Sequence record: PP680570.1
DNA: 64,000 nt
DNA from: Enterococcus phage VRE9_4
Direction: 5' to 3' (one strand)
In this document: positions 4,846 to 44,298 of the stretch, piece by piece
Layout: every line of letters starts with the position of its first letter
Position numbering within the stretch: position 1 is the stretch's first letter
Position numbers and translations under genes: made by a program
Notes under the pieces: model-generated
Database searches by the model: none
What the model was told of the DNA's origin: nothing
The model's input: only the letters and a program-made list of their open reading frames with translations

Positions 4846-4931
4846 AAAATAAAAACTCCTTTTAAAATTCTTTTATTTCTTAACTATATATATATTATAT
4901 CATTTTTAAATAAGTTTTTCAAATTAAATTA

Positions 4932-5902: not shown

Positions 5903-7204
5903 TTAAATTTTAATCCAAATATCTCCTTCTCTACCTGCTTTACCTGGATCAGTAACACTAAAGAAAATTCTAACTCCTTTAAATGATATATATGATTGTT
6001 CAGAAGATAATGCAGTATCTGTTAATAATTCACCATCACTCATTCTCAAATAGTGATAATATCCGCTTTCTGTTGGTTGTCCACTACCAGCATAATTTCT
6101 TGGGAATAAAATAGCTGCATCACGACTGCTAGAATAATTTCTAAAAACAAGCTGTCCAATACCATTCATTGCTCCACCATTAATATCAATGGCTGGTTTA
6201 CGATTTAAATTACCTACATAAGTTAAGTTAGGCTCAGAAATTTTTAACGCTGGCATACCTAAATATCGTTTAGTATCTCCAATAGTCATTTGACCTGCAG
6301 GAATATGAATTCGTCCAAAATTCAATGTTAAAGAGCCACCAGTATTTCCGTCGACCCCACCAAAAATAATATCATTCAATTCTGTTCCGCCATTACCACT
6401 TGTCGCTATAACTAACGAATCTGTTGGGCTTGTTGGAAATTGAAAATCTAATCTTCCAAAACTATTTCTAATACTTAATGGGAGTCCGGAACGATCTGTA
6501 TCTAATACAAGACTTCCTGTCATGGTTTGGTTTATAGTTTTATCTAAATAATTTTCATGTTTATGATTTACTGGGGCTAAATTTGTATGGGTGTGATTGA
6601 TAGGTGAATATTTTGATTTCATTGTTTCTAACAAAGTTTTACCAGCAGATGCTGCTAATGCTCTATCAGAAGCTGAACTATCTAATGTAGAAACTAGTTC
6701 ATCTTTACGAACATATTGACTGAAATCAATTCCACCTTCACTTGGAGATGCACCAGTCACTTCATAAGGAACAAAAGTACTACCATTCCAACCAAGCAAT
6801 GTATTAACTTTTAAATTTTCTCCCAGTGTAACATCTTTAAGTTCTCCAATAGAAGAGTTGGTTGATAATACTGATGCTCCTCCTACTCGCAATGCCCCAG
6901 TAAAATTGTTCCAATCTCCTTCCCATATATTGTTTCCACCCTTAAGAGCTATTAAGGCTGCTTCTATACCTTGATCTTGAACAATTTTTGTAATCTCTGG
7001 CACCAAATCAGAAAAATCTGATACTGTATGTTTGTGACCTTTTTGAGAAACCTCTTTCCATGATTCGTTATTTTGTCCTGTAGCTACCCAAATAGCTCTA
7101 GGATTTGAACCTGTATCAATATAAGTTTGTCCATAATATTCAGCACTAATAGTTGGTTTACCTGTGCCGTATAACATATTTCCTCTAGTAATATGAATTG
7201 ACAT
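5903..7204 (-). CDS. putative tail fibre / receptor-binding protein (His-rich HxH repeats)
   Basis: 433 aa; Gly/Ser/Thr/Asn-rich; HTHTNLAPVNHKHENY His-x-His cluster reminiscent of metal-binding fibre tips; no enzymatic motif. Confidence 0.4.
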   Translation of the reverse strand: MSIHITRGNMLYGTGKPTISAEYYGQTYIDTGSNPRAIWVATGQNNESWKEVSQKGHKHTVSDFSDLVPEITKIVQDQGIEAALIALKGGNNIWEGDWNNFTGALRVGGASVLSTNSSIGELKDVTLGENLKVNTLLGWNGSTFVPYEVTGASPSEGGIDFSQYVRKDELVSTLDSSASDRALAASAGKTLLETMKSKYSPINHTHTNLAPVNHKHENYLDKTINQTMTGSLVLDTDRSGLPLSIRNSFGRLDFQFPTSPTDSLVIATSGNGGTELNDIIFGGVDGNTGGSLTLNFGRIHIPAGQMTIGDTKRYLGMPALKISEPNLTYVGNLNRKPAIDINGGAMNGIGQLVFRNYSSSRDAAILFPRNYAGSGQPTESGYYHYLRMSDGELLTDTALSSEQSYISFKGVRIFFSVTDPGKAGREGDIWIKI

Positions 7205-7264
7205 TTATTTGTCCTCCTTTATAATCTTTCTCTTATGTATATTAAAAAGCTTTTAAACCTAATA

Positions 7265-7300
7265 TAAAAAAAGAACCCTAAAAGATTAAAGGGTTCAAAA
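7265..7300 (-). terminator. terminator hairpin GAACCCT...AGGGTTC
   Basis: 7-bp stem + T-run on minus strand downstream of 7295..7807. Confidence 0.55.
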
Positions 7301-7807
7301 ACTTTCTGACGTTTTTAGAAAAATAATACCATTGGAAATAAATTTTTGTCCCCAATAAGTATCTTCTATTTCTTTATACTCATCTTGATTTACAGGAATT
7401 GGCAATGTACTTCTTACAATAGTTTGCTGTTTCATAATCTCTTTTTTTAAACGTTCCCTTTTTGTATATTTGGTTACCATATAAGGTAATATAAATATAG
7501 CAGGGAAAACTAAAAGCATTGAAAGCAAAATTATAAGAAAAGAACGGAAAGTAAAAATAGAAGCTACTCTATCTTCTTGCTCCCATCTTTTGGCTGGAAG
7601 TAAAATTGATTGCTCATCAAAATTCCAGCGTTCAATTAATAAATCTCTTTTTTCGATTGCATTTCGAGCTTTTTCTAGTTCTACTTGATGCCGAACTAAA
7701 ACTCTACTATTGAATAGCTCCACTTTTAACCCTCCTAACCAATCAGGAATCCTGTGTTTTTCTATAAAATTCTTTAACATGCGAAAAACAAGCTCGTCCT
7801 CCTTCAT
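7295..7807 (-). CDS. membrane protein (170 aa)
   Basis: hydrophobic segment FRSFLIILLSMLLVFPAIFILPYMV. Confidence 0.5.
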   Translation of the reverse strand: MKEDELVFRMLKNFIEKHRIPDWLGGLKVELFNSRVLVRHQVELEKARNAIEKRDLLIERWNFDEQSILLPAKRWEQEDRVASIFTFRSFLIILLSMLLVFPAIFILPYMVTKYTKRERLKKEIMKQQTIVRSTLPIPVNQDEYKEIEDTYWGQKFISNGIIFLKTSESF

Positions 7808-8440: not shown

Positions 8441-8739
8441 AAAATCCCATCTCCTTCAGATTCTACATAGGCTTTAATAGCTGTATAGAACTCTGATGGT
8501 GCCTCAAAACCAGCATAATTTGCTACAACTAAACATTGTTGTACATAATCAATAAATCTATCAAAAATCTCTGGATTGTCCTTGAAATATTCATCAGTAT
8601 CCTTTTCCATAGTAAAGGCAAGCTTTGCTTCGCCATCTTCTTCTAAGTATTGAATACCAACTTTTTCATCAACAATTAATTCAAAGAAAAATTTCTCATA
8701 TTGTATATTGTCCAATTTTATCACTCCAATTTCCTTCAT
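8437..8739 (-). CDS. hypothetical acidic protein (100 aa)
   Basis: ORF, translationally coupled. Confidence 0.5.
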   Translation of the reverse strand: MKEIGVIKLDNIQYEKFFFELIVDEKVGIQYLEEDGEAKLAFTMEKDTDEYFKDNPEIFDRFIDYVQQCLVVANYAGFEAPSEFYTAIKAYVESEGDGIL

Positions 8740-9715
8740 AGGTTTTTAACTCACAATCTCCGCATATAGGCATATCAGAAAAAGCGTTTGTTTTATCACA
8801 AGATAAACATTTTACTACAGATCCATATTTTAATATCTCAGATTCCTTTGGCTCTCCTATATATAAATTCTCTCTTTTCGATTTTATACCTAAAGTAAAA
8901 TCATTATATACTTGACTTAAATTTGTTTTATAAGTCTTTATATTATCATCATGGACTGAGACAAAATTCTCTCCAAGAGAAGAGAAGAAGGTGCCTTGTA
9001 GAGTATTTATTGTAAATTCTTCAATTCCATTATTTTTATATGGATATTGCGTAGATAACATTGCTCCCTTATAGTCTTTTGAAAAAACTCCTAGACGTCT
9101 ATAAATTTTTTTATCTACATATTCAACATCATTAAAGTTAGGTTTTTCTGTCATAACATAAGTTAAAAATGTATAATTATCTAACGCTGCAGAATATCCT
9201 CCAGTATAATGTTCTCCCATCGGTTTATAACATGTCGTCCATCCTCTGCCGACACCCATCATTATGAAATCATAAGGATGAACAGATATAACCAAATAAC
9301 TGGATGGAAGTATATATGAATTCTTTATTTGAGAATACATTAATACGATTTCTTCTCCTAATTCTGGAGTTTGATTAATAACCTTAGATAATTTTTTGCC
9401 AGAAGAATGTTTATTCTCTATTAAATCTGAATCATTTAATAGTCCTGCTAATTTAAAGAAGCCAGCATCTATTTTCCTGGTTTCTTTATATCGTTCCTTA
9501 AACTCTTTTTTAAAGTCTCTTTCTGCTTGTGTTTTTATAGCCTTTATGTTATCTATCTTAAAAACTAATCTTAGATTATTATCCATCATAGCAATTATTT
9601 CTTTTTTCTTTTCAGTAACTTGACTGAAAAAATTTTCATAATTATTATACGAAAAGAGACTAACCCCTTGAGAGAGGTTAATCTTTTCGTACTGACTTTT
9701 CATATTTTCTGTCAA
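8696..9715 (-). CDS. paralogue A of a 3-member phage protein family (core ISVHPYDFIMMGVGRGWTTC), C-terminal Zn-ribbon
   Basis: 339 aa; shares Sx[HD]PxD-x3-MS-x4-6-WxSC and KIYRRLG motifs with 10822..12021 and 13218..15089; C-terminal CLSC...CGDC; TTG start, alternative ATG at 9703. Confidence 0.6.
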   Translation of the reverse strand: MTENMKSQYEKINLSQGVSLFSYNNYENFFSQVTEKKKEIIAMMDNNLRLVFKIDNIKAIKTQAERDFKKEFKERYKETRKIDAGFFKLAGLLNDSDLIENKHSSGKKLSKVINQTPELGEEIVLMYSQIKNSYILPSSYLVISVHPYDFIMMGVGRGWTTCYKPMGEHYTGGYSAALDNYTFLTYVMTEKPNFNDVEYVDKKIYRRLGVFSKDYKGAMLSTQYPYKNNGIEEFTINTLQGTFFSSLGENFVSVHDDNIKTYKTNLSQVYNDFTLGIKSKRENLYIGEPKESEILKYGSVVKCLSCDKTNAFSDMPICGDCELKTYEGNWSDKIGQYTI

Positions 9716-9727
9716 ATTTCCACCATC

Positions 9728-10801
9728 TTACTTTCCGTCGTTATTTATAGCTTCAGTATAACGTTCTTTTTGTGATACGTCTTCTAAGTATTTTTCTCGA
9801 CATTCATCGCACAAATGCGACAATACTTCATTATCTGTATCAGACCAAGGAACGGTCCCTTTGTCTAAAAAGCAAAATTCGCATTGTTCAACTTCTTTTT
9901 TTTTATTACGACTTTTATAGGGAATAAAACTCGTTTCATCATCGTTATAATTTAGATAATCCGATTCATCATAAACGTCTTCATCTCCCCAGTAACAATA
10001 AGAACCATTTTGGTAATAGTTAGAATATCCATAATTACCATATCCAGCATAAGAATCTTCTTTATACTCATAAAATTTAGGATTTTGATATTGATCTTCT
10101 AAAATTTCCTTTACTTTTCTCTGAGTCTTATACATTTCGTTAATATAAATACGTTCATAACATGTATGTTCATCCATATAGCCTGCAGATAAATTTACTC
10201 CTGCGAAACCAAATTCAGGACAAACTTGACAAATATCTGTATAAGATCCATTGTGAGTTTTGAAACCAAAGCTGTTAATATATTCTTCAAAATCTATATT
10301 ATCTAAATAATAATAGACAGACTCTCCAAAGCCTTTACGATCCAATTGAATAGCGAAATTAATCTCTGTCAAGGCTGTTTGCACATCTTCTCCAAAATAA
10401 TTTTCTACATTTTTTGTAAAGAAACTAGACCCAATAGTTCCAATTTCCTCATCCCAACAAAATAATACATGAGGACGATAACCTTGTGTTAGCATATCTA
10501 AAATGCTAAAAACCCCACAACGGTCATCCCCACCAATGCCATCGGGACACCATAAAACATTTTTTTCTTTATCATGGAAAATAGTTTCCTCTGTTGGAGC
10601 TACTGTATGGACTGTATCTAAATGAGCCAACATAAGAACAGGAATATCTCCTTTAGCATAAATAAAACTACCATCAACACGATAAATATCTCTAGAATCA
10701 TACATTGATTCTATTTGACCTAATAAATAAAAATGAAGTCCCTCTTGTGTCATTTGTAAAATGTTTTTGAAGGTTTGTAAACCTAATTCTTTCTTTTGCA
10801 T
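9728..10801 (-). CDS. M20/M28-like zinc metallopeptidase homologue with Tyr/acidic low-complexity region and C-terminal Zn-ribbon
   Basis: LAHLDTVH, GGDDRCG and DEEIG motifs in the order H-D-EE typical of M20/M28/M42 co-catalytic peptidases; YAGYGNYGYSNYYQNGSY tract; CEFC...CDEC; start set at ATG 10801 (AAGGGGGA SD) rather than the longer track ORF. Confidence 0.55.
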   Translation of the reverse strand: MQKKELGLQTFKNILQMTQEGLHFYLLGQIESMYDSRDIYRVDGSFIYAKGDIPVLMLAHLDTVHTVAPTEETIFHDKEKNVLWCPDGIGGDDRCGVFSILDMLTQGYRPHVLFCWDEEIGTIGSSFFTKNVENYFGEDVQTALTEINFAIQLDRKGFGESVYYYLDNIDFEEYINSFGFKTHNGSYTDICQVCPEFGFAGVNLSAGYMDEHTCYERIYINEMYKTQRKVKEILEDQYQNPKFYEYKEDSYAGYGNYGYSNYYQNGSYCYWGDEDVYDESDYLNYNDDETSFIPYKSRNKKKEVEQCEFCFLDKGTVPWSDTDNEVLSHLCDECREKYLEDVSQKERYTEAINNDGK

Positions 10802-10821
10802 TTTATAAAATTCCCCCTTTT

Positions 10822-12021
10822 TTAATAATCCCAACCATCTTCGTCGTCCCAATATTCATCTTCGTCATAGTAAGCCTCTTCGTCAAAAAGACCTCCAGCT
10901 TCAATTGATCCATCAATAAAGAAATTACAAGTTGGACTTATAACTGAATCAACGCCTACTTCGAAACGAACATTGCATAATTCAGTTTCATCAGTTTCGT
11001 CATAAAAATCCTTATTGAAATGTTTTCTTAAAATATTTTCAGAATTATTTTCTCCTTCAACATTGTATTTTTGTTTGTCTAAAATAATCATTGGAACTTT
11101 ACTCATAGCTCCATGTGTAATATCATTATAGTGAATTTCACTACTTTCTCTAATAGTATCTTCTGCATCAGAAGAATCAATAAATCCATAGGCAACATTA
11201 TCTTCTCCAAAAGTATCTACAAATAATTTACGTAAAGCTTTAGTATTATTTTTATTAACTCCTGGATATGAGCGAGATAAAAAGATAGCATCTAACTCTG
11301 TATTGAACATGCCCATTCTACGCCAAATTTTATCTGGGATACTATCTTGACTTCCTAAAATGATTTGACAAATAAAACTTGAACCATCTAGTAAATAAGA
11401 AACTGGTCCAGCCCCATAACAACCATCAATAATAGAATGACAAGAAGACCATTCTCTGGTTTTGTTTACAGACATCATTAAAATATCAAGGGGATCAATA
11501 GAAACTTCTAAAACTCCACGAGCCAATAATGATTCATTAAAAGCTGATAGATAAATTTGTATTTGGTTAACTAGTTTTTTATTTTTTAAAACACGCTTAA
11601 GAGATTTAGAAATTTTTGCTCCAGCTTGAAATGATTCACCTAAAATTTCTTTATTTGTCATAAAACGGTTTTTTTGTAACTCTTCTAAAGAAAAACTACT
11701 AAAATAAAGTGCTATAATTTTCCCTTCGTTTTCTTCCATAGTCATTGATTTAACTTTAGACAAAAATGAAGAATAAAAAGCATCTTTAATTTCTGAATTT
11801 GACAATGCGTTTTCAACGCTTCCTTCTAGTCTTAGTTTGTTTCCAAATTTCTGAAAAATAGGAAATTTTGCTTGAGCCCAATCTCTTGCCCATGCTCGTC
11901 TAGTATCTGTATCGAAACCACCATTGATGCTATATAAAATATTATCAATTTCTTCCCAAGATTTTTTCATCATTGGTTCCATCAATTTTAATTTTTCTTC
12001 GATAGTATATGTTTTTTTCAT
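10822..12021 (-). CDS. paralogue B of the 3-member family (core VSIDPLDILMMSVNKTREWSSC), highly acidic C-terminus
   Basis: 399 aa; conserved core + KIWRRMGMF; C-terminal EEAYYDEDEYWDDEDGWDY. Confidence 0.6.
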   Translation of the reverse strand: MKKTYTIEEKLKLMEPMMKKSWEEIDNILYSINGGFDTDTRRAWARDWAQAKFPIFQKFGNKLRLEGSVENALSNSEIKDAFYSSFLSKVKSMTMEENEGKIIALYFSSFSLEELQKNRFMTNKEILGESFQAGAKISKSLKRVLKNKKLVNQIQIYLSAFNESLLARGVLEVSIDPLDILMMSVNKTREWSSCHSIIDGCYGAGPVSYLLDGSSFICQIILGSQDSIPDKIWRRMGMFNTELDAIFLSRSYPGVNKNNTKALRKLFVDTFGEDNVAYGFIDSSDAEDTIRESSEIHYNDITHGAMSKVPMIILDKQKYNVEGENNSENILRKHFNKDFYDETDETELCNVRFEVGVDSVISPTCNFFIDGSIEAGGLFDEEAYYDEDEYWDDEDGWDY

Positions 12022-12048
12022 TGCAAAATCTCCCTTTTTTTTATTTTA

Positions 12049-12291
12049 TTATTGTAAATTAAAATTTACTCCTTGCTCTGTTAAAAAATATTTTCGAGGA
12101 GTATCTGAAGTTTTGTCTACCAACCCTTTTTTATTCAATGAAGTCAATACACCTGGAACACCATTAGGCATCATAAATGCTAATTCTGCCACACGTTTAG
12201 AAAACACTGCATCTTCTTCTTTGTCAATATGAGCTTCTTGTAAAGCTTTTAAAACTTGCGTACCTTTTTCTGTTAATTTAATTTCTTCCAT
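12049..12291 (-). CDS. small winged-helix-like protein (PadR-like wing PRKYFLTEQG); 6th member of wH paralogue family
   Basis: 80 aa; C-terminal LTSLNKKGLVDK...PRKYFLTEQG resembles wing of other five paralogues. Confidence 0.5.
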   Translation of the reverse strand: MEEIKLTEKGTQVLKALQEAHIDKEEDAVFSKRVAELAFMMPNGVPGVLTSLNKKGLVDKTSDTPRKYFLTEQGVNFNLQ

Positions 12292-12410
12292 TTAAAATCC
12301 GCTCCTATTTTTTATTTATTAACTCATTTTCTATAATATAATTATAACAAATTGAACTAACTTTTTCAAATTGTTATTTCTCATAAGCTATTTTATCTTT
12401 TTGTTTCTTT

Positions 12411-12440
12411 CATTTAACTTATAATTAATTATATCATCTA
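12411..12440 (-). promoter_or_regulatory. minus-strand copy of conserved promoter/leader cassette (TGATATAATTAATTATAAGTTAAATG)
   Basis: reverse complement of the cassette found 6x on plus strand; TTGAAT -35 14 nt upstream; a second TTGAAA-N14-TGTTATAAT promoter lies at ~12343-12371. Confidence 0.6.
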
Positions 12441-12454
12441 ATATATAAAAATTC

Positions 12455-12492
12455 AAATAAAAAATCCCAATCGTCTAGATTGGGATTAATTT
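12455..12492 (-). terminator. terminator hairpin AATCCCAATC/GATTGGGATT
   Basis: 10-bp perfect stem + T-run on minus strand after collagen-like gene. Confidence 0.65.
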
Positions 12493-12500
12493 TAAATAAT

Positions 12501-12842
12501 TTATGCGCCAGCTTGACTAACTGTAATTTCAATTGTAGATTGATCAGAAAGAGTAGCTGTTCCTCCAGTTACTTGACCACCTTCATTTGTTCTTAAAGCA
12601 ATAGCTGTAATAGATTTTCCATCTTCCCCTTTTGCTCCAGGAACTCCTTGGTCTCCTTTAGGTCCTGCAGGTCCGACAGGTCCAGTTTCCCCAGCAGGTC
12701 CAGCAGGTCCAGTTTCACCTGGTTCCCCTTTATCTCCCTTAGGTCCTTTTTGCTCTTGTAAGAAATCTACTAAAGAAGCAAATGATTCCTGTGTCATAGT
12801 TTTCCCAGCGGCAAATAATGCTTTAATTTGTTCTGCGCTCAT
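12501..12842 (-). CDS. collagen-like repeat protein (G-X-Y x ~17)
   Basis: [43 protein letters not shown]. Confidence 0.75.
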
Positions 12843-12904
12843 TTTATTTCCTCCTATTTTTTAAATATATTTGAGAGTTTATCTCTTTTTATTATGAAAA
12901 AGTC

Positions 12905-13120
12905 TTATTCTGCTTTTCCAACTTTTGCCTTACCTACTATAGCTTTTCCCACAATAGGTTCCTCACCTGAGTCCTCTTCTTTTTTATAAGCAATAGCTTT
13001 ATCAGTGGGACAAATCATATAATAGAAATCTTCCATCTTGTTTTTACGATAATTGACAACCATATAATTTTCTTCATATTCTCGTCCGCAATGAGAACAT
13101 ACATAAATATCTTTTTTCAT
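12905..13120 (-). CDS. small Zn-ribbon protein (71 aa)
   Basis: CSHCG...CPTD; C-terminal IVGKAKVGKAE repeat. Confidence 0.5.
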   Translation of the reverse strand: MKKDIYVCSHCGREYEENYMVVNYRKNKMEDFYYMICPTDKAIAYKKEEDSGEEPIVGKAIVGKAKVGKAE

Positions 13121-13183
13121 TCTCTTTCCTCCTTTTGGTAATCGCTAATATTATTAAAAAGACCTAATTTGAAACAATAAAAT

Positions 13184-13209
13184 AAAGCCCTATTATAAAA
13201 TAGGGCTTT
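13184..13209 (-). terminator. terminator hairpin AAAGCCCTA/TAGGGCTTT
   Basis: 9-bp stem followed by T-run on minus strand. Confidence 0.6.
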
Positions 13210-13217
13210 AAATCATA

Positions 13218-15089
13218 TTATTCTTTTACTTCGTCAGTTAATAAGAAATCAATAAATTCTTTATTAATAGGATTGTCTCCAGTCAAACGAAATTCAAAGG
13301 AACTATCTTCAAGAGGCTCCCATGAAAAACCTAAAGAATCTAAAATAATTTTAGTTTTTAATTGAAATTCTTCTTCCCGATTTTCACATTTGAAAATATA
13401 ATCCTTTAAAATTTTAAAGCAATCTTTTTTAGATGCACCTAATTCTTGATACTGTCTGAAAGTTTCATTCATTTTCCAAGCTTCATCAAGAATGTTTGGC
13501 AATTCCTGAGAAAAGATTTCTTTCCATTCATCAGAATTAATATCTTCTTCATCCTCATGATATTTTCCATCAACTCTCCAAATAAAGCAGTCATGGATAC
13601 AAGCAGTTGCTCCATCTGACAATTCTACAACATCTTCTTGAAGAATATAACTATCAAGAGTTTCACACCATGCAGCATCAGAATTCAAGATATATTCCTC
13701 TAAATAATCTGAGTAAGTAGCATCTTTTGCATAAACCCAAGAGTCTTCTTTAGATCCAATGGCATGAACAGCTTCTTCACTCCAAATATTTTGTCCTTCT
13801 TTAGTAGACCAAACGGTTTCTTCTCCACAATATTCGCAAACATAGACGATATCTCCAAAAATATCTAATACTCGAATACCATAATCTTCATCAAAACGTT
13901 CTTCACAACATGGACAGATTGATCTTGAACCATAGTAGCATTCTTCACAAAGACCTGAGGAACTTGCAGGATCATCTTTAGAGCCACATTCGAGACAAAC
14001 AAAAGTACTTTGTGCATTAATTGGGATAGTTTTACCTTCTTCAGCTTGGAAAATAACCGGAGATCGTAAACCTCGAATTGCATCATTCCAGTTGAAAGCA
14101 TCTACATAACCATATTCATTACAATCTGAACCATTTCTCCAACGAAAACGAGTTAAATTTTCTTCAATTTGGTTAATTTTCGCATTACCTTCCCAACCTA
14201 ATAAAGATAAAGTTGCATTACTAATCATATTTTGCAACCCATTATTCAAACGAGGATATCCTTTTTGAGATAAAAGAACTGGAACAGTTTCTTCTTCATA
14301 GTCAACTTCAGAAACGAACATCATTTGACGCCATACTTTTGGAGCTAAATAACCAAATTCTTCTAAATCTTTTTCCATTACAGTAAAACCAACAAAAGCG
14401 TCTGGTCCAACCATATAACCTAGTGTACCATTGTTGTATTCACCTTCGTCAGGATGCATACATGAACGCCAACTATTACCATAACTAATTAAGAATAAAT
14501 CTTCTGGTCTGATAGATAGAACAATTTTTCGTCCATCAAAATTTGCTCCCGAAGCAAAACTAGCCATCTCCCCACCAATAATTTTATTTTTAATATCAGA
14601 AACAGCTTCTTTTACTCCTTTAACTGAAGAAATGTTCTGAGCAGTTAATACCGACATATCAACTAAAGAGTTTAAAACTTTAGTTAAACGTTGTCCATGG
14701 AAAGGTAACATTTTAAATTCATCTTTCATAATTACCTTTTTATTTTCAACTCTAATTTTGTCTAAAGTATTACAAACCGATGTTTTAAAAACGTCAATGA
14801 AATTATAAGAAATATTCAAACCACGTAAATCAGAATATAATTCATCTTCTACATAATTTTTCATTTCTTCAAATGAAAATTCTTCCATAAAATCTTTGAA
14901 ATCTTTAGGATCTAAAACAATTCTTCCATTTGTTCCATCAAAGATTTTTTGTAGATAAGAGTTTTTCATTTCCATTCCTTTTGCGTAATAATCTAAATAT
15001 TGTGAGTCAGATAATGAACCCCACTCATAAAATTCATTAAAGATTTCTTTTAAATTTGCTTTAACCTCTTCAACGTTATAATTTAGCAT
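13218..15089 (-). CDS. paralogue C of the 3-member family (core LSIRPEDLFLISYGNSWRSC), multiple CxxC zinc ribbons, acidic
   Basis: 623 aa; conserved core + KVWRQMMFV; CLECGSKDD...CEEC, CPCCEERF, CEYCGEE clusters. Confidence 0.6.
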   Translation of the reverse strand: MLNYNVEEVKANLKEIFNEFYEWGSLSDSQYLDYYAKGMEMKNSYLQKIFDGTNGRIVLDPKDFKDFMEEFSFEEMKNYVEDELYSDLRGLNISYNFIDVFKTSVCNTLDKIRVENKKVIMKDEFKMLPFHGQRLTKVLNSLVDMSVLTAQNISSVKGVKEAVSDIKNKIIGGEMASFASGANFDGRKIVLSIRPEDLFLISYGNSWRSCMHPDEGEYNNGTLGYMVGPDAFVGFTVMEKDLEEFGYLAPKVWRQMMFVSEVDYEEETVPVLLSQKGYPRLNNGLQNMISNATLSLLGWEGNAKINQIEENLTRFRWRNGSDCNEYGYVDAFNWNDAIRGLRSPVIFQAEEGKTIPINAQSTFVCLECGSKDDPASSSGLCEECYYGSRSICPCCEERFDEDYGIRVLDIFGDIVYVCEYCGEETVWSTKEGQNIWSEEAVHAIGSKEDSWVYAKDATYSDYLEEYILNSDAAWCETLDSYILQEDVVELSDGATACIHDCFIWRVDGKYHEDEEDINSDEWKEIFSQELPNILDEAWKMNETFRQYQELGASKKDCFKILKDYIFKCENREEEFQLKTKIILDSLGFSWEPLEDSSFEFRLTGDNPINKEFIDFLLTDEVKE

Positions 15090-15124: not shown

Positions 15125-15153
15125 ATTATATCATTTTAAAAATTACTTTTCAA
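15125..15153 (-). promoter_or_regulatory. promoter TTGAAA-N14-TGATATAAT for paralogue C
   Basis: reverse-strand reading; same leader style (ATTTATATAAGTTAAAGAAAGGGAG) as plus-strand cassette. Confidence 0.6.
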
Positions 15154-15390
15154 ATAATGTTTTTAAAATCTAAACTTTATTTGAAGTTTCGTTTCTAAAA
15201 CTTGATTACAAAACTATTATATAATTTTAAAAAAAGTTTTTCAACCAAGAGCAACGAAAGGTTTAGCCTCTAGTCAAAAACATATTTGATTTTTTTTGTT
15301 TAATATATATTTTTATAAATATTTTTTTATTTAAAAAGGAAGTTTTTTGTTCATGTATTACAAATCCGCTCCCCATTATCGCTCTCTTGG

Positions 15391-15537: not shown

Positions 15538-15906
15538 ATGAAAGAAGAAATTATTAAAAAATTTATGAACGCCTTAAACATTTCAAGAGAAGCAGCTTTG
15601 GAGTTATACGACTATGATGAACGAGTAGAAAAAAGTAATAAGCCTGTAGAAGGAGAAATTATAGTTAAAAAGACTCCTAAAACTTCAAAGAAAAAAGGTA
15701 TTCAAAAAGAAGAATTAGATGCAATGAAAGATTTGTTGTCTAAAATGTTCCCTAATGGAGAAGAGTTTAAAAATAATCAATTATCTCCATTATGCGAAGA
15801 ATTAAATTTAACCAACAGACAAACTCCTTCAAGATTAAAAGCATTAAAAGAAGAAGGTTTCTTAGAAGACTTAGGTGGTTCACCTAAAAAATATAAGATT
15901 AAATAA
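15538..15906 (+). CDS. small winged-helix DNA-binding protein, paralogue family member (wH-1)
   Basis: 122 aa; C-terminal NRQTPSRLKALKEEGFLEDLGGSPKKYKIK shared with 31397, 47024, 50569, 52613 genes. Confidence 0.6.
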   Translation: MKEEIIKKFMNALNISREAALELYDYDERVEKSNKPVEGEIIVKKTPKTSKKKGIQKEELDAMKDLLSKMFPNGEEFKNNQLSPLCEELNLTNRQTPSRLKALKEEGFLEDLGGSPKKYKIK

Positions 15907-15990: not shown

Positions 15991-18123
15991 ATGTTAAATG
16001 TAATGAAAAAAGATGGTCATATTGAAGTTTTTGATACGAAGAAAATTCAGGAGGCAATTTTAGCTTCTGCAAGGAAAATTCTTTCTAACGAAGAAGAATA
16101 TGATATGCAGCAAAAAGCTTTAATTATTGCGAATGAGGTAACTCGTTTCTTAAATTCAACTGAAGATGAAAATGCAGTTATTATGACATCTAAAATTCAT
16201 AATGTTGTTCTTGAGATTCTGTCTAAGGAATGGGAAGTTGTTGGAGCTTCTTATGGGATGTATAGAAATTATAGAAAACAAATGGCTAAAACATTTTTAA
16301 AAAGTTATGAGGAATCCGAAACTGTTCTTCATGATGGAGATAAAGAAAATGCTAACAAAGACAGTGATTTGAATAGTACAAAACAAGCCTTAATTGCAAA
16401 CAATAATATGCGTGGTTATATGGAAACATTTGAAATGGATAAAGATTGGATTGAAGCTCATAAACAAGGTTGGATACACATCCATGACTTGGCAGAGCGT
16501 TATTTACGCCAGCAAAATTGTTGTTTGTTTAACATGGCAGGTTTATTAGATGGTGGTTTTCAATTAAATGGAACAGTTTATGCAGAACCTAAACATTTTG
16601 ATTCTGCTATTAATGTAGTAGGAGATGTTACTTTATTTGCTTCTGCACAGCAATATGGTGGTTTTACTATTCCTGAGATAGATACTGTTTTAGCTAAATA
16701 TGCTGAAAAAAGTTATCAATCGAACTTAAAATTTATTTTAGATAAATTTGGGAGTATTACCAATGAAAATATTATGGAAACGCTAGAACAAACAGCTTAT
16801 GACATGACTGTTAGAGAGCTAGAACAAGGATTCCAAGGCTTTGAAACAAAATTAAATACAATTAGTAATTCTTTAGGACAAATCCCTTTTGTAACAATTA
16901 CTTTTGGCTTGGATACGACCCAATGGGGGAGAGAAATTTCTAAAGCTATTTTGAATGTACGAATTAAAGGAATTGGAGAAAATAAATCAACAGCCGTATT
17001 TCCTAAATTATCTTTTTTACATAGAGAGGAAATTAATGGAAGTCCAGAATCTCCTAACTATGACATTAAACAATTAGGAATTCAATGTTCTCGATTAAGA
17101 CTATACCCTGATTGGTTATCACTAGATAGTGGAAACCTTGCAGAAGTATATGAAAGATCTAATCAAGTTGTATCTGGGATGGGTTGTAGGGCATATTTAA
17201 GTCCATTCTGGGATGAACAAGGAAACGAAATTTATACTGGACGATCTAATATTGGAGCTGTTACGTTGAACCTTCCTAAAATTGGCTTAGAGTCAAAAGG
17301 AGATTGGAATAAATTTTTTGATCTAATAGATAAATATTCTGATATTGTTTTTGCTATTCATGAAGATTACTATACTAAAATTAGTAAAACAAAAGGCTCT
17401 TCTAATCCTCTATATTTTTGTGAAGGTGGAGCTTGGACAAAAGTAGGCTATGATGAAGAAGTTGGAAAAATATATGAAGCTTCAACTGCTTCATTAGGAT
17501 ATATTGGAATTTATGAAACATTAAAAGCAATGGATGTTCCAAAAGAGGAATATCTTAAATACGGAACTAAAATTGTTGCATATTTGAAAAAATTAACAGA
17601 AAAAGCTACAATTAATTATAATCATTTATATGCACTTTATTCAACCCCAGCAGAAAGTTTGTGCTATAGATTCCAGAAAATTAATCGTAAAGACTATGGG
17701 GTAATTGAAGATGTAACTGATAGAGAATACATTACAAATTCTTTCCATGTTCCTGTATGGGAAGATGTTAGCGTTCCTGAAAAAATTGCTTTTGAAGCAC
17801 CTTTCCATAAACTTGCAACAGGTGGGCGAATTTCTTATAATGAATTTGTTTATGGAGTAGATAATTCTGTACTAGAACAAGCAATTAATTTTGCTATGGA
17901 AAAAGGAATGTATTATGGAGTTAACGTTGTTGCAGGAACTTGTAATCAATGTGGCTATAGTGGAGATTTTCATGATAACTGTCCTAAATGTGGAACTCAT
18001 GATATTACCGTAGTAACGAGAGTTTGCGGCTATCTTTCCTTTGATCAGATTCATGGTGACTCACGTTATAATCCTGGTAAACAAAAAGAAGTTAAAGAAA
18101 GAGTTAAACATAATTTCAAATAA
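15991..18123 (+). CDS. nrdD: anaerobic ribonucleoside-triphosphate reductase (class III)
   Basis: 710 aa; C-terminal CNQCGYSGDFHDNCPKCG zinc site and glycyl-radical motif RVCGYLS. Confidence 0.9.
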   Translation: MLNVMKKDGHIEVFDTKKIQEAILASARKILSNEEEYDMQQKALIIANEVTRFLNSTEDENAVIMTSKIHNVVLEILSKEWEVVGASYGMYRNYRKQMAKTFLKSYEESETVLHDGDKENANKDSDLNSTKQALIANNNMRGYMETFEMDKDWIEAHKQGWIHIHDLAERYLRQQNCCLFNMAGLLDGGFQLNGTVYAEPKHFDSAINVVGDVTLFASAQQYGGFTIPEIDTVLAKYAEKSYQSNLKFILDKFGSITNENIMETLEQTAYDMTVRELEQGFQGFETKLNTISNSLGQIPFVTITFGLDTTQWGREISKAILNVRIKGIGENKSTAVFPKLSFLHREEINGSPESPNYDIKQLGIQCSRLRLYPDWLSLDSGNLAEVYERSNQVVSGMGCRAYLSPFWDEQGNEIYTGRSNIGAVTLNLPKIGLESKGDWNKFFDLIDKYSDIVFAIHEDYYTKISKTKGSSNPLYFCEGGAWTKVGYDEEVGKIYEASTASLGYIGIYETLKAMDVPKEEYLKYGTKIVAYLKKLTEKATINYNHLYALYSTPAESLCYRFQKINRKDYGVIEDVTDREYITNSFHVPVWEDVSVPEKIAFEAPFHKLATGGRISYNEFVYGVDNSVLEQAINFAMEKGMYYGVNVVAGTCNQCGYSGDFHDNCPKCGTHDITVVTRVCGYLSFDQIHGDSRYNPGKQKEVKERVKHNFK

Positions 18124-23528: not shown

Positions 23529-24389
23529 TTGAACACATTAAAAATGGATCATTTTGTTGCATCTAGTATTTCTGAAATCCTAGACAATGGAGTTAATTCT
23601 TTAGGAGCTCGTCCTAAATACGCCTCTGATGGAAAAACCGCTAATAGTAAATATATAACAGATGTATTTATCAAATTTTATTTAGATAAAGGAGAGTTAC
23701 CCATTAGTAGATTGCGTCCTGTATATACGGGATTAGCTAGACAAGAGCTTTTTTGGATATACCAAGATCAAACATCTGATTTACAGCCATTAAGAGATAG
23801 AGGGGTTCATTGGTGGGAAGATTGGGCTCTAGAGGATGGAACTATTGGACAACGTTACGGAGCAACAGTTAATCGCTATAATCTAATTGATAGATTAATA
23901 GAAGGGTTAGAAAAAAATCCATATAATCGTAGAAATATTATTAATTTATGGCAATATAAAGACTTAGATGAAACAGAAGGTTTAATGCCATGCGCTTTTC
24001 AAACTATTTGGGATGTTAGAGAAGTCAATGGAGAAACGTTTTTGGATATGAGTTTAATTCAACGCAGTTCAGACTTTCTTGTAGCTGGTATGGGTATTAA
24101 TCAAATCCAATATGTAGCATTACAAATGATGGTAGCTAAACATTTTGGGTGGAAAGTAGGAACTTTTTCTTGGCACGTAATGAACTTGCATATTTATGAT
24201 AGATATTTTGCTCAAGCTCAAGAATTAGTTACTAGATTTAAAAAGATGAACCAAGAGAAGCAAAAAGAAATTGAGTTTTATTTAGACGTTCCTGACAAAA
24301 CTAATTTTTATGATATAAAACCAAGCGATTTTGTACTAAATGGCTATTCCTCTGTAGGAGATCAGATGAAATTTGATATGGCAATTTAA
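23529..24389 (+). CDS. thyA: thymidylate synthase (ThyA family)
   Basis: NRRNIINLWQ, catalytic Cys in LMPCAFQ (Ala replaces usual His), SDFLVAGMGINQIQY with uracil-binding Asn retained; TTG start after AGGAGG. Confidence 0.8.
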   Translation: MNTLKMDHFVASSISEILDNGVNSLGARPKYASDGKTANSKYITDVFIKFYLDKGELPISRLRPVYTGLARQELFWIYQDQTSDLQPLRDRGVHWWEDWALEDGTIGQRYGATVNRYNLIDRLIEGLEKNPYNRRNIINLWQYKDLDETEGLMPCAFQTIWDVREVNGETFLDMSLIQRSSDFLVAGMGINQIQYVALQMMVAKHFGWKVGTFSWHVMNLHIYDRYFAQAQELVTRFKKMNQEKQKEIEFYLDVPDKTNFYDIKPSDFVLNGYSSVGDQMKFDMAI

Positions 24390-29539: not shown

Positions 29540-29592
29540 TTGAAATTTTTAATTTAAAATGATATAATTAATTATAAAGTTAAATAAGGAGG
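29540..29592 (+). promoter_or_regulatory. conserved promoter/leader cassette copy 1: TTGAAA-N14-TGATATAATTAATTATAAAGTTAAATAAGGAGG
   Basis: identical 33-nt block (ext -10 + leader + SD) repeated at 30062, 36277, 38460, 42594. Confidence 0.75.
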
Positions 29593-29597
29593 TAAAA

Positions 29598-30050
29598 ATG
29601 ATAGAGTTAGCCTCTCATATTGTAGATGTGAGTTTAGAACATAAAAAATATATTTATCACTTACAGTTACAAAAAATCACGTATTATACTGTATTACAAG
29701 GACTAAAATTAAATTTAATAGATAAAGATACCTTTGAAGAATTATATAAATTTGAGCTTGATAGATTTACACCATCAAGGTATGGTCCTCGGTCTGAAGC
29801 TATATTTCTTCGATATGGTGTTTTTGGAGCGGAAAGGATTTTTACTAATTCTTTTAGCAATTTTTGTCTAAGGGATATGGATTTTTCCCATTTAAATCCT
29901 ATTATTCTTCCTCTTTTGGAAGAACAGACAATGGATTTATGTAGAAAAAGTATGAAAAATCCTATTTTTGAAGAACGATTTAAAGATAATAAAGAACTTA
30001 GTATTGAAGATATATTTGAACTTAGCAAAAAATATTCAGATTTGAAATAA
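29598..30050 (+). CDS. hypothetical protein (150 aa)
   Basis: ORF behind cassette. Confidence 0.55.
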   Translation: MIELASHIVDVSLEHKKYIYHLQLQKITYYTVLQGLKLNLIDKDTFEELYKFELDRFTPSRYGPRSEAIFLRYGVFGAERIFTNSFSNFCLRDMDFSHLNPIILPLLEEQTMDLCRKSMKNPIFEERFKDNKELSIEDIFELSKKYSDLK

Positions 30051-30094
30051 AAAATATAAAATGATATAATTAATTATAAAGTTAAATAAGGAGG
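30042..30094 (+). promoter_or_regulatory. conserved promoter/leader cassette copy 2
   Basis: identical cassette. Confidence 0.75.
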
Positions 30095-30635: not shown

Positions 30636-30664
30636 TTGAAAAAATATGAATAACATGTTATAAT
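30636..30664 (+). promoter_or_regulatory. promoter TTGAAA-N14-TGTTATAAT driving tRNA array
   Basis: rigid architecture; no ORF follows. Confidence 0.55.
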
Positions 30665-31318: not shown

Positions 31319-31347
31319 TTGAAAAAAATCTTTCAAAATGTTATAAT
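31319..31347 (+). promoter_or_regulatory. promoter TTGAAA-N14-TGTTATAAT
   Basis: drives 31397 gene. Confidence 0.55.
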
Positions 31348-34031: not shown

Positions 34032-34060
34032 TTGAAAAAATATATTAATCATGTTATAAT
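34032..34060 (+). promoter_or_regulatory. promoter TTGAAA-N14-TGTTATAAT driving tRNA-Cys
   Basis: rigid architecture + leader-like TAATCATAAAGTTAATTAAG. Confidence 0.55.
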
Positions 34061-42573: not shown

Positions 42574-42626
42574 TTGAAATTTTTAGTTTTGCGTGTTATA
42601 ATTAATTATAAAGTTAAATAAGGGGT
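42574..42626 (+). promoter_or_regulatory. conserved promoter/leader cassette copy 5 (TGTTATAAT variant, SD GGGG)
   Basis: TTGAAA-N14-TGTTATAATTAATTATAAAGTTAAATAAGGGG. Confidence 0.7.
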
Positions 42627-44269: not shown

Positions 44270-44298
44270 TTGAAAAATTATATTCATAATGATATAAT
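44270..44298 (+). promoter_or_regulatory. promoter TTGAAA-N14-TGATATAAT
   Basis: rigid architecture. Confidence 0.55.

Follow-up and report, generated by a model that had tools for sequence, protein, structure and literature searches.

Within the 64,000 nucleotides (nt) of Enterococcus phage VRE9_4 analysed here (record PP680570.1, hereafter the window; GC content low, about 30%), the block at 8696-15089 carries three paralogous genes on the minus strand, which we call A (open reading frame (ORF) 8696-9715), B (ORF 10822-12021) and C (ORF 13218-15089), together with a gene for an M20-type hydrolase and small genes of other kinds (Table 1). Family residues are numbered throughout according to the 399-aa protein B. 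Over the block, the window is 94-95% identical to six Enterococcus phages of about 140 kb (H1, VRE9_1, VRE9_2, VRE9_3, EF1 and EF5), in all of which the genes are labelled 'hypothetical' except for one 'putative peptidase' and one 'tail fiber protein'. The block diverges from an operon for anaerobic ribonucleotide reductase (NrdD).

Table 1 Genes, core motifs and transcription signals of the block, in order of transcription
Feature	Position (nt)	Strand	Description
Tandem host sigma-A-type promoters upstream of C	15216-15244 and 15125-15153	-	TTGAAA-N17-TATAAT
Paralogue C	13218..15089	-	623 aa; own transcription unit; N-terminal helical region, core, four CxxC pairs (residues 365-421), C-terminal extension of ~200 aa; PHROG 29713 (unknown function); family hidden Markov model E 1e-67
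Core motif of C, S192...C210	14460-14516		
Hairpin directly 3' of C	13183..13210	-	Intrinsic-terminator-like; 12-bp stem, then T-run
Small Cys-containing protein	12905..13120	-	71 aa; CxxC and one more Cys; PHROG 33299 (unknown function)
Collagen-repeat protein	12501..12842	-	113 aa; Pfam Collagen, E 4e-9; PHROG 34916; 'tail fiber' in relatives
Hairpin after collagen-like gene	12463..12487		Terminator-like on both strands; T-run on minus strand only
Promoters of the winged-helix / B / peptidase / A operon	12341-12369 and weaker 12428-12456	-	12341-12369 with extended -10 TG
Putative winged-helix protein	12049..12291	-	80 aa; first gene of the operon; PHROG 3502
Paralogue B	10822..12021	-	399 aa; helical N-domain (~1-165), predicted GNAT-like alpha/beta core (~166-315), acidic-aromatic tail EEAYYDEDEYWDDEDGWDY
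Core motif of B, S174...C194	11440-11502		
Partner hydrolase	9728..10801	-	M20-type di-zinc catalytic domain without lid
Paralogue A	8696..9715	-	339 aa from TTG 9715 or 335 aa from ATG 9703; C-terminal zinc ribbon C303xxC...C318xxC
Core motif of A, S144...C162	9230-9286		

An earlier reading of this DNA, made from the sequence only (the sequence-only reading), had described A, B and C as a three-member paralogous family, and this is borne out. The three ORFs lie on the minus strand at the positions given, and the pairwise BLASTP comparisons are significant (E = 6e-15 for A-B, 1e-9 for A-C and 1e-7 for B-C, with about 24% identity over 180-200 residues). In addition, a hidden Markov model (HMM) of 148 family members picks exactly these three ORFs out of the 64 kb of the window, with E values of 2e-94, 1e-67 (for C) and 1e-64. 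For A, the EF1 record gives a 335-aa product, which agrees with the ATG at 9703. The core motif that had been drawn from the three proteins is found at residues 144-162 of A (SVHPYDFIMMGVGRGWTTC), 174-194 of B (SIDPLDILMMSVNKTREWSSC) and 192-210 of C (SIRPEDLFLISYGNSWRSC). The Gly/Tyr segment (G-x-Y-x-x-G, with His in place of Tyr in A) and the K[IV][YW]R[RQ][LM] motif (at A203, B231 and C251) are likewise present in all three. The motif position that had been written as conserved His or Asp does not hold, since the three paralogues have H, D or R there and the family as a whole shows no conservation at it.

For B and C, word-indexed searches recovered only 10 and 7 relatives, respectively, and an exhaustive profile search of 1.84 billion cluster representatives detected 3,965 family clusters, counted at 50% identity, with E<=1e-3, of which 2,869 had E<=1e-10 and 158 had E<=1e-30. 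The family was found in 22 IMG/VR contigs of 19-224 kb. Plasmids gave one weak match, and 185,579 bacterial species genomes gave two loci, both in one Lachnospiraceae metagenome-assembled genome (MAG); because the plasmid and bacterial matches are so few, we consider the family essentially phage-restricted. All family members are annotated as 'hypothetical protein' in their source records. In PHROGs, A and B belong to PHROG 18912 and C to PHROG 29713 (E = 1e-174 to 0), both of 'unknown function'; these are separate groups there, but the searches presented here join them as one superfamily, tied to the peptidase PHROGs 34186 and 4191.

Seven residues, S174, D179, W191, C194, R234, Y252 and D300, are invariant in 148 diverse members at a mean column identity of 10%, and all three window paralogues retain them. 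About eleven other positions (K52, G134, P177, S184, S193, G200, G205, K231, W233, P253 and Y298) are conserved in at least 90% of the 148 sequences, and the family signature can be written as S...D...W-x-[ST]-C...R...Y-P...D. Judged from the alignment, such invariant and mostly polar residues against so low a background identity look like the pattern of an active site and not like that of a structural repeat.

Past the core, the members differ from one another. At least two CxxC pairs are carried by 98 of 154 members and an Asp/Glu-rich tail with Tyr, Trp or Phe by 34, while 31 have neither; ribbon and tail occur together in nine. The claim that all three window paralogues end in zinc ribbons or acidic tails was right for the elements and partly wrong for their placing: CxxC pairs are present in A and C only, B has the acidic-aromatic tail, and C does not end at its zinc ribbons but runs about 200 residues past them (its residues 413-442 give a sub-threshold treble-clef Pfam match). 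In the tail-bearing members, an aromatic residue is found within the last few tail positions (...WDY, ...EWD, ...DDW, ...EDF). Tyr/Trp-rich acidic low-complexity tracts are present in both B (10822-10880, minus strand) and the peptidase (residues ~270-310). The acidic-aromatic tails recall the acidic C-terminal tips of SSB and T7 gp2.5.

The most constant feature of the family is its neighbour. Using family probes (a 12-sequence subset of the alignment), 24 loci were fetched, comprising 22 viral and 2 MAG contigs, and their ORFs were compared with those of the window. An orthologue of the window peptidase lies directly downstream of a family gene, on the same strand, in 23 of the 24 loci, and the 24th contig stops at the family gene; the description of the paralogues as interleaved with a metallopeptidase is therefore true but understated, as all 23 evaluable loci have the adjacent pair. 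The orthologues share 33-50% identity with the window protein (E from 1e-15, for an ORF cut by a contig end, to 1e-87), and the gaps or overlaps between the two genes are at most about 30 nt where read. When neighbouring ORFs were clustered with the EF1 copy included, all 25 loci had the family and 24 of them had the peptidase, and the next real cluster was limited to six or seven closely related contigs. No further gene was conserved across the loci; ThyA, UvdE, DUF5688 and HNH were sporadic. Thus, the family gene and the peptidase gene form an obligate adjacent pair across unrelated phage contigs. Several family copies per locus are common (three in L002 and two apiece in L003 to L008), and the order family / peptidase / family is found in the window and in L002, L004, L005 and L030. 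Even the distant locus L030, in which C is 33% identical, keeps the whole arrangement, with NrdD divergent and followed by C, a small ORF, an 80-aa ORF, B, the peptidase and A.

The neighbourhoods consist of runs of small same-strand ORFs beside nucleotide-metabolism genes, without structural genes. ThyA lies immediately past a family / peptidase / family cassette in two unrelated contigs (L004 11590-12438 and L005 6682-7704), and the window has its own ThyA (23529-24389, plus strand) about 8 kb off and on the opposite strand. A recurring tie of the module to nucleotide metabolism is weakly indicated.

The H-D-EE signature that the sequence-only reading had seen in the gene between the paralogues, and had ascribed to an M20/M28-clan metallohydrolase, was found again and does not vary among 18 syntenic orthologues. 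The invariant residues are H77, D79, D109, D110, E135, E136, D171 and H229 in ORF numbering (H60, D62, D92, D93, E118, E119, D154 and H212 counted from the ATG), which form the motifs H-x-D, G-x-D-D-R, E-E, D and H, and all di-zinc ligands and the catalytic Glu of the MH-clan active site are kept. The most likely start of the protein is the ATG at 10801, which follows a strong ribosome-binding site (AAGGGGGA) and gives 357 aa; the longest ORF reaches 10852. With this start, which lies 20 nt past the stop codon of B, there is no overlap with the upstream gene. The profile of the partner matched tripeptidase 3rza (1e-9), PepT 3gb0 (2e-9) and carboxypeptidase G2 1cg2 (1e-4) in the PDB as well as PHROG 4191, a 'peptidase' (1e-29), and its Pfam Peptidase_M28 match was sub-threshold (17.8 vs 21.3 bits). 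The two matched blocks lie about 50 profile positions apart, compared with about 170 residues in 3rza, and an M20 lid domain was not found. By its sequence, then, the partner is an intact M20-type di-zinc hydrolase without a lid. Compared with the M20 enzymes PepT, carboxypeptidase G2 and ArgE/DapE/LysK, it shares the H-x-D, G-x-D-D, E-E, D and H ligand set, lacks the lid/dimerisation domain of about 110-170 residues, and adds a low-complexity tract of Tyr, Gly and acidic residues as well as a C-terminal domain of variable kind, here a zinc ribbon (CxxC...CxxC).

The exact sequence TTGAAA-N17-TATAAT occurs 12 times in the window, compared with 0.14 expected, always co-oriented with the local genes, and most copies have a -10 element extended by TG and a spacer rich in A/T. 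The copies lie at 168-196, 4894-4922, 12341-12369, 15125-15153 and 15216-15244 on the minus strand and at 29540-29568, 30042-30070, 30636-30664, 31319-31347, 34032-34060, 42574-42602 and 44270-44298 on the plus strand. They define one promoter class of the phage, in agreement with the shared promoter cassette that had been proposed, and three of them serve the block. SPO1-like phages drive their early genes from host sigma-A consensus promoters, and by analogy with them the host sigma-A type of the cassette suggests that the block is expressed early by the host RNA polymerase. The cassette had been labelled as that of the middle genes, and here the host sigma-A consensus with extended -10 suggests early instead; the other part of that claim, a non-structural setting, stands, since a late structural operon is improbable for a block served by such cassettes. 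A sigma-70 consensus that is perfect at all 12 positions, TTGACA-16-TATAAT, was also found at 7198-7225 on the plus strand, in the short gap that separates two minus-strand genes (5903-7204 and 7295-7807). Transcription from it would run antisense into the minus-strand operon; the match may be due to chance.

The remaining genes of the block are less constant. The 71-aa protein had been called a zinc-ribbon protein; its CxxC and one more Cys were found, and the zinc-ribbon matches are sub-threshold only. With three Cys in all (the CxxC and one in CPxD), it would be at best an atypical zinc ribbon, and its C-terminus is a short tandem repeat of (I/K)VGKA (IVGKAIVGKAKVGKAE). L030 has an unlabelled 75-aa ORF that matches it in position. 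The collagen-like nature of the next protein is clear from Pfam (Table 1). This gene lies between terminator-like hairpins in a non-structural region, and its length varies among phages that are about 95% identical, from 113 aa in the window to 124 aa in EF1 (L001 12804-13178) and 180 aa in VRE9_3 (L031 4305-4847), which looks like a polymorphism in the number of G-X-Y repeats. Because the distant syntenic locus L030 has no collagen-like gene, it is probably an unrelated insert. The assignment of the 80-aa protein to the winged-helix class rests on Pfam LexA_DNA_bind (7.7e-4) and HTH_45 matches, both sub-threshold. L030 carries an 80-aa ORF at the same position, and no homologue was detected beside the module in the remaining loci. 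We also considered whether the small helix-turn-helix-like proteins encoded at 12049-12291 and 15538-15906 are paralogues and rejected this, as they show no similarity. In the divergent operon, nrdD is a single intact 710-aa ORF in the window (15991-18123, plus strand), and in EF1 (L001 16325-19489) it is interrupted by an HNH homing-endonuclease insert, which the EF1 record annotates as 'Phage intron'; the presence of the intron thus varies among close relatives.

The sequence-only reading could not assign the paralogues to any known domain, and at the level of sequence this stands. Profile searches of Pfam, NCBIfam, PADLOC and PDB found no well-characterised family containing the three paralogues. 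In Pfam and NCBIfam, there was no match covering the core for A, B and C, for 103 diverse members taken singly or for the HMM consensus sequences, and the matches that were obtained were to C-terminal zinc-ribbon models only. None of nine proteins from the module and from its relatives matched in PADLOC, searches of the PDB by sequence and by profile (16- and 103-sequence profiles) gave chance-level matches or zinc-finger noise only, and Foldseek against BFVD returned uncharacterised phage proteins only, the family's own members among them. PcfJ-like (PF14284), a motif look-alike, had no match in the 103 members (E<=1) or in the consensus sequences (E<=10). In full-text literature searches, no account was found of the family or of the family/peptidase gene pair.

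At the level of structure, the core is weakly GNAT-like. AlphaFold2, supplied with the 148-sequence alignment, predicted B with a pLDDT of 93.4 and a pTM of 0.88 and the core alone with a pLDDT of 93.7. The secondary-structure elements of the predicted core follow the order b1-a1-a2-b2-b3-b4-a3-b5-a4-b6, which is that of the GNAT fold. A faint Pfam Acetyltransf_19 signal in 2 of 103 members (E about 0.01) points the same way. The nearest fold thus appears to be that of the GNAT acyltransferases, although the resemblance is weak and remote, and from the predicted model we infer a possible homology of the family core to GNATs. Among the GNAT-fold enzymes compared (Gcn5, FemA/FemX, ATE1 and L/F-transferase, L-PGS/MprF, and malonyl-CoA decarboxylase), the nearest by fold are the branches without the coenzyme A (CoA) motif and the one with a helical N-domain. 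Going by the order of the elements in the model, S174 and D179 would lie where b1 ends and a1 starts, the loop joining a1 to a2 would hold W191 and C194, strand b3 would hold K231, W233 and R234, Y252 and P253 would close b4, and Y298 and D300 would come past a4. The conserved residues would thus sit where GNAT active sites lie.

Taken together, we propose that the block is a phage-specific module of a GNAT-like acyl- or aminoacyl-transferase and an M20 amidohydrolase which act in the same pathway. This proposal is tentative, and we place its probability a little short of even. The transferase component would be composed of an N-terminal helical domain, the alpha/beta core, and a C-terminal zinc ribbon and/or Tyr/Trp-rich acidic tail. 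We infer its transferase chemistry, the role of its Cys, the functional order of both enzymes and their biological role as follows. The family protein would move an acyl or aminoacyl group to an acceptor, for which proteins of the host or the phage, nucleic acids and metabolites are all conceivable, and C194 would be the acyl-carrying residue or the catalytic nucleophile. The donor may be other than a CoA thioester; the Fem, L/F-transferase and ATE1 branches of the GNAT fold use aminoacyl-tRNA, which would be one candidate. The M20 partner would cleave an amide bond in the same pathway, removing the group, trimming or activating the product, or recycling a by-product. The paralogues diverge most in the D179-W191 loop and past C194. 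If the fold is right, this region corresponds to the acceptor-binding alpha1-alpha2 region of GNATs, and three copies would then serve three acceptors. Early expression by the host RNA polymerase would fit a role in host takeover or counter-defence. In its fullest form, the module would be an unrecognised modification system in which a Cys-dependent, CoA-independent transferase on a very divergent GNAT-like scaffold, which may draw on aminoacyl-tRNA or a different activated acyl donor, works with a dedicated lid-less M20 hydrolase and the paralogues hit different host targets early; we regard this as doubtful.

Several points weigh against the proposed module. The GNAT motif A, Q/R-x-x-G-x-G/A, which forms the CoA-pyrophosphate loop between beta4 and alpha3, was not found in the family; in its place, the members have the invariant pair Y252-P253 and then x-x-N (consensus RQYPxxN), and a Gly-rich loop is absent. 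There was no significant sequence or profile match to any family of the GNAT clan, consensus sequences included, beyond the faint Acetyltransf_19 signal. Of the three comparisons with GNATs that could be run, fold order agreed and the other two, the CoA loop and sequence or profile similarity, did not. A catalytic Cys is also unusual among GNATs. Moreover, peptidase homologues with 26-32% identity occur in Lactococcus P087, Bacillus Tsamsa-like, Cellulophaga phi38:1 and Pectobacterium PP90 phages with no HMM-detectable family member nearby. As the peptidase also occurs without the family, the partnership is one-sided and need not mean a shared pathway.

Two genes of these phages were checked as hidden family members. 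In PP90, orf8 (L029 3029-4813, 594 aa, conserved in phiKMV-like Pectobacterium phages) overlaps the start of the peptidase homologue (L029 4686-5786), and its collinear motifs P-N-D ... S-C-M ... RWYG ... P-Y-x-D (also PND...SCM...GDY) recall those of the family. Its membership is unsupported by hhalign (E = 0.067 as a single sequence and 0.12 profile-to-profile), and orf8 could be a hyper-divergent or an analogous partner. Cellulophaga gp037 was negative.

The one-sided dependence, with the family always beside the peptidase and the peptidase also alone, leads to a different explanation, in which the family proteins are non-catalytic adaptors or regulators that gate the lid-less M20 hydrolase or recruit host proteins to it, a different one for each paralogue. 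Recruitment would go through the zinc ribbon or the acidic-aromatic tail, and the invariant residues would be a binding surface. Several paralogues per single peptidase, C-terminal modules that vary in the way typical of interaction (the 98 of 154 members with CxxC pairs and the 34 of 154 with tails) and an M20 site which, without a lid, is open enough for macromolecular substrates all fit this explanation. Nevertheless, we find it rather unlikely, because keeping seven residues (six polar and one Trp) invariant over some 4,000 clusters at 10% identity is more typical of an enzyme than of a binding surface and because the core resembles an enzyme fold. It is unlikely, too, that the module modifies nucleic acid, with the GNAT-like core acylating a DNA or RNA base or a tRNA in the manner of Mu Mom, TmcA or TacT-type toxins, the zinc ribbons binding nucleic acid and the M20 enzyme supplying or recycling an acyl-amino-acid donor. 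Zinc ribbons are common in the family, the conserved K52, K136, K231 and R234 could bind phosphates, and neighbours in nucleotide metabolism exist (NrdD here and, immediately past the cassette in L004 and L005, ThyA). DNA-modifying GNATs of phages are also known, namely Mom and one GNAT that is coupled with an ABC ATPase (PMC7824862). However, neither Mom nor any other nucleic-acid-modifying family was detected, the neighbours other than the peptidase are not conserved, and the acidic tails would repel nucleic acid.

The sequence-only reading had suggested a catalytic or metal-binding site of His, Asp and Cys. The conserved and probably catalytic core remains from this suggestion, and a His/Asp/Cys metal site or a Cys-His-Asp triad of the protease or transglutaminase type is improbable. 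C194 and D179/D300 are invariant, and the family consensus W-x-S-C-H places a His after the Cys, but this residue is Y in A and M in C, the earlier His position varies among the paralogues as described above, and the core has only one invariant Cys, so a Cys/His metal site is unlikely. A cysteine hydrolase of the papain-like, transglutaminase-like or NlpC/P60 kind was rejected in the same way, as no conserved Cys-His(-Asp) triad on a papain-like fold was found. The combination of ribbons, acidic tails and an M20 enzyme also brings to mind lysine biosynthesis, in which LysW combines a zinc ribbon with an acidic C-terminal tail, LysK belongs to the M20 enzymes, and LysK or ArgE performs the release from LysW. 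In a system of this kind, ribbon and tail would covalently carry an intermediate and the M20 enzyme would free the product. Members do have ribbons and/or acidic tails with an aromatic residue near the end, and one has a faint Zn_ribbon_LysW Pfam match (E = 0.021), but this match is at chance level, no ATP-grasp (LysX-type) gene is conserved in the 24 neighbourhoods, ribbon and tail coincide in only 9 of 154 members, and the tails are far longer than that of LysW and occur on the peptidase itself; such a carrier is therefore very improbable. Finally, the collagen-like 'tail fiber' gene inside the block might point to virion or assembly components processed by the peptidase. We give hardly any credence to such a structural module, as host-type promoters and terminators bound the units, the block diverges from the NrdD operon amid small early-type ORFs, and the collagen-like gene is absent from the syntenic L030. 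The M20 clan contains exopeptidases and amidohydrolases and is not known to include prohead proteases, which we also count against it.

For the proposed transferase and hydrolase module, the closest functional precedents are phage enzymes of the GNAT superfamily, which serve host takeover or DNA protection; for example, the phiKMV-like Rac acetylates the alpha subunit of RNA polymerase, and Mu Mom acylates adenine (PMC7824862). Their early or accessory genomic position is comparable to that of the block. In contrast, Rac and Mom have no sequence relationship to the family, both use acyl-CoA-type donors, and they are not described as M20-coupled or multi-paralogous (PMC7824862).

In conclusion, the block of VRE9_4 represents a phage-restricted family of about 4,000 clusters which has an active-site-like signature, a confidently predicted structure and a fixed enzyme partner, and which is unnamed in Pfam, NCBIfam, PHROGs and the literature searched. 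We believe that it is a concrete and tractable target for new phage biochemistry. The proposal makes specific predictions (that C194 is catalytic, that the di-zinc partner is intact and that expression is early), and these are directly testable, since Enterococcus faecium and Enterococcus faecalis are culturable and six close phages are deposited. In addition, the phages concerned are virulent ones that infect vancomycin-resistant enterococci, a kind considered for therapy, so the effects of early accessory enzymes on the host are of practical relevance. If the GNAT assignment is true, the fold gains a branch without the CoA motif and with an invariant Cys, and if it is false, the core is a new fold. 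If the family and its partner do constitute a modification system, both their enzyme family and their chemistry of host takeover or counter-defence would be new and would extend across thousands of uncultured phages.

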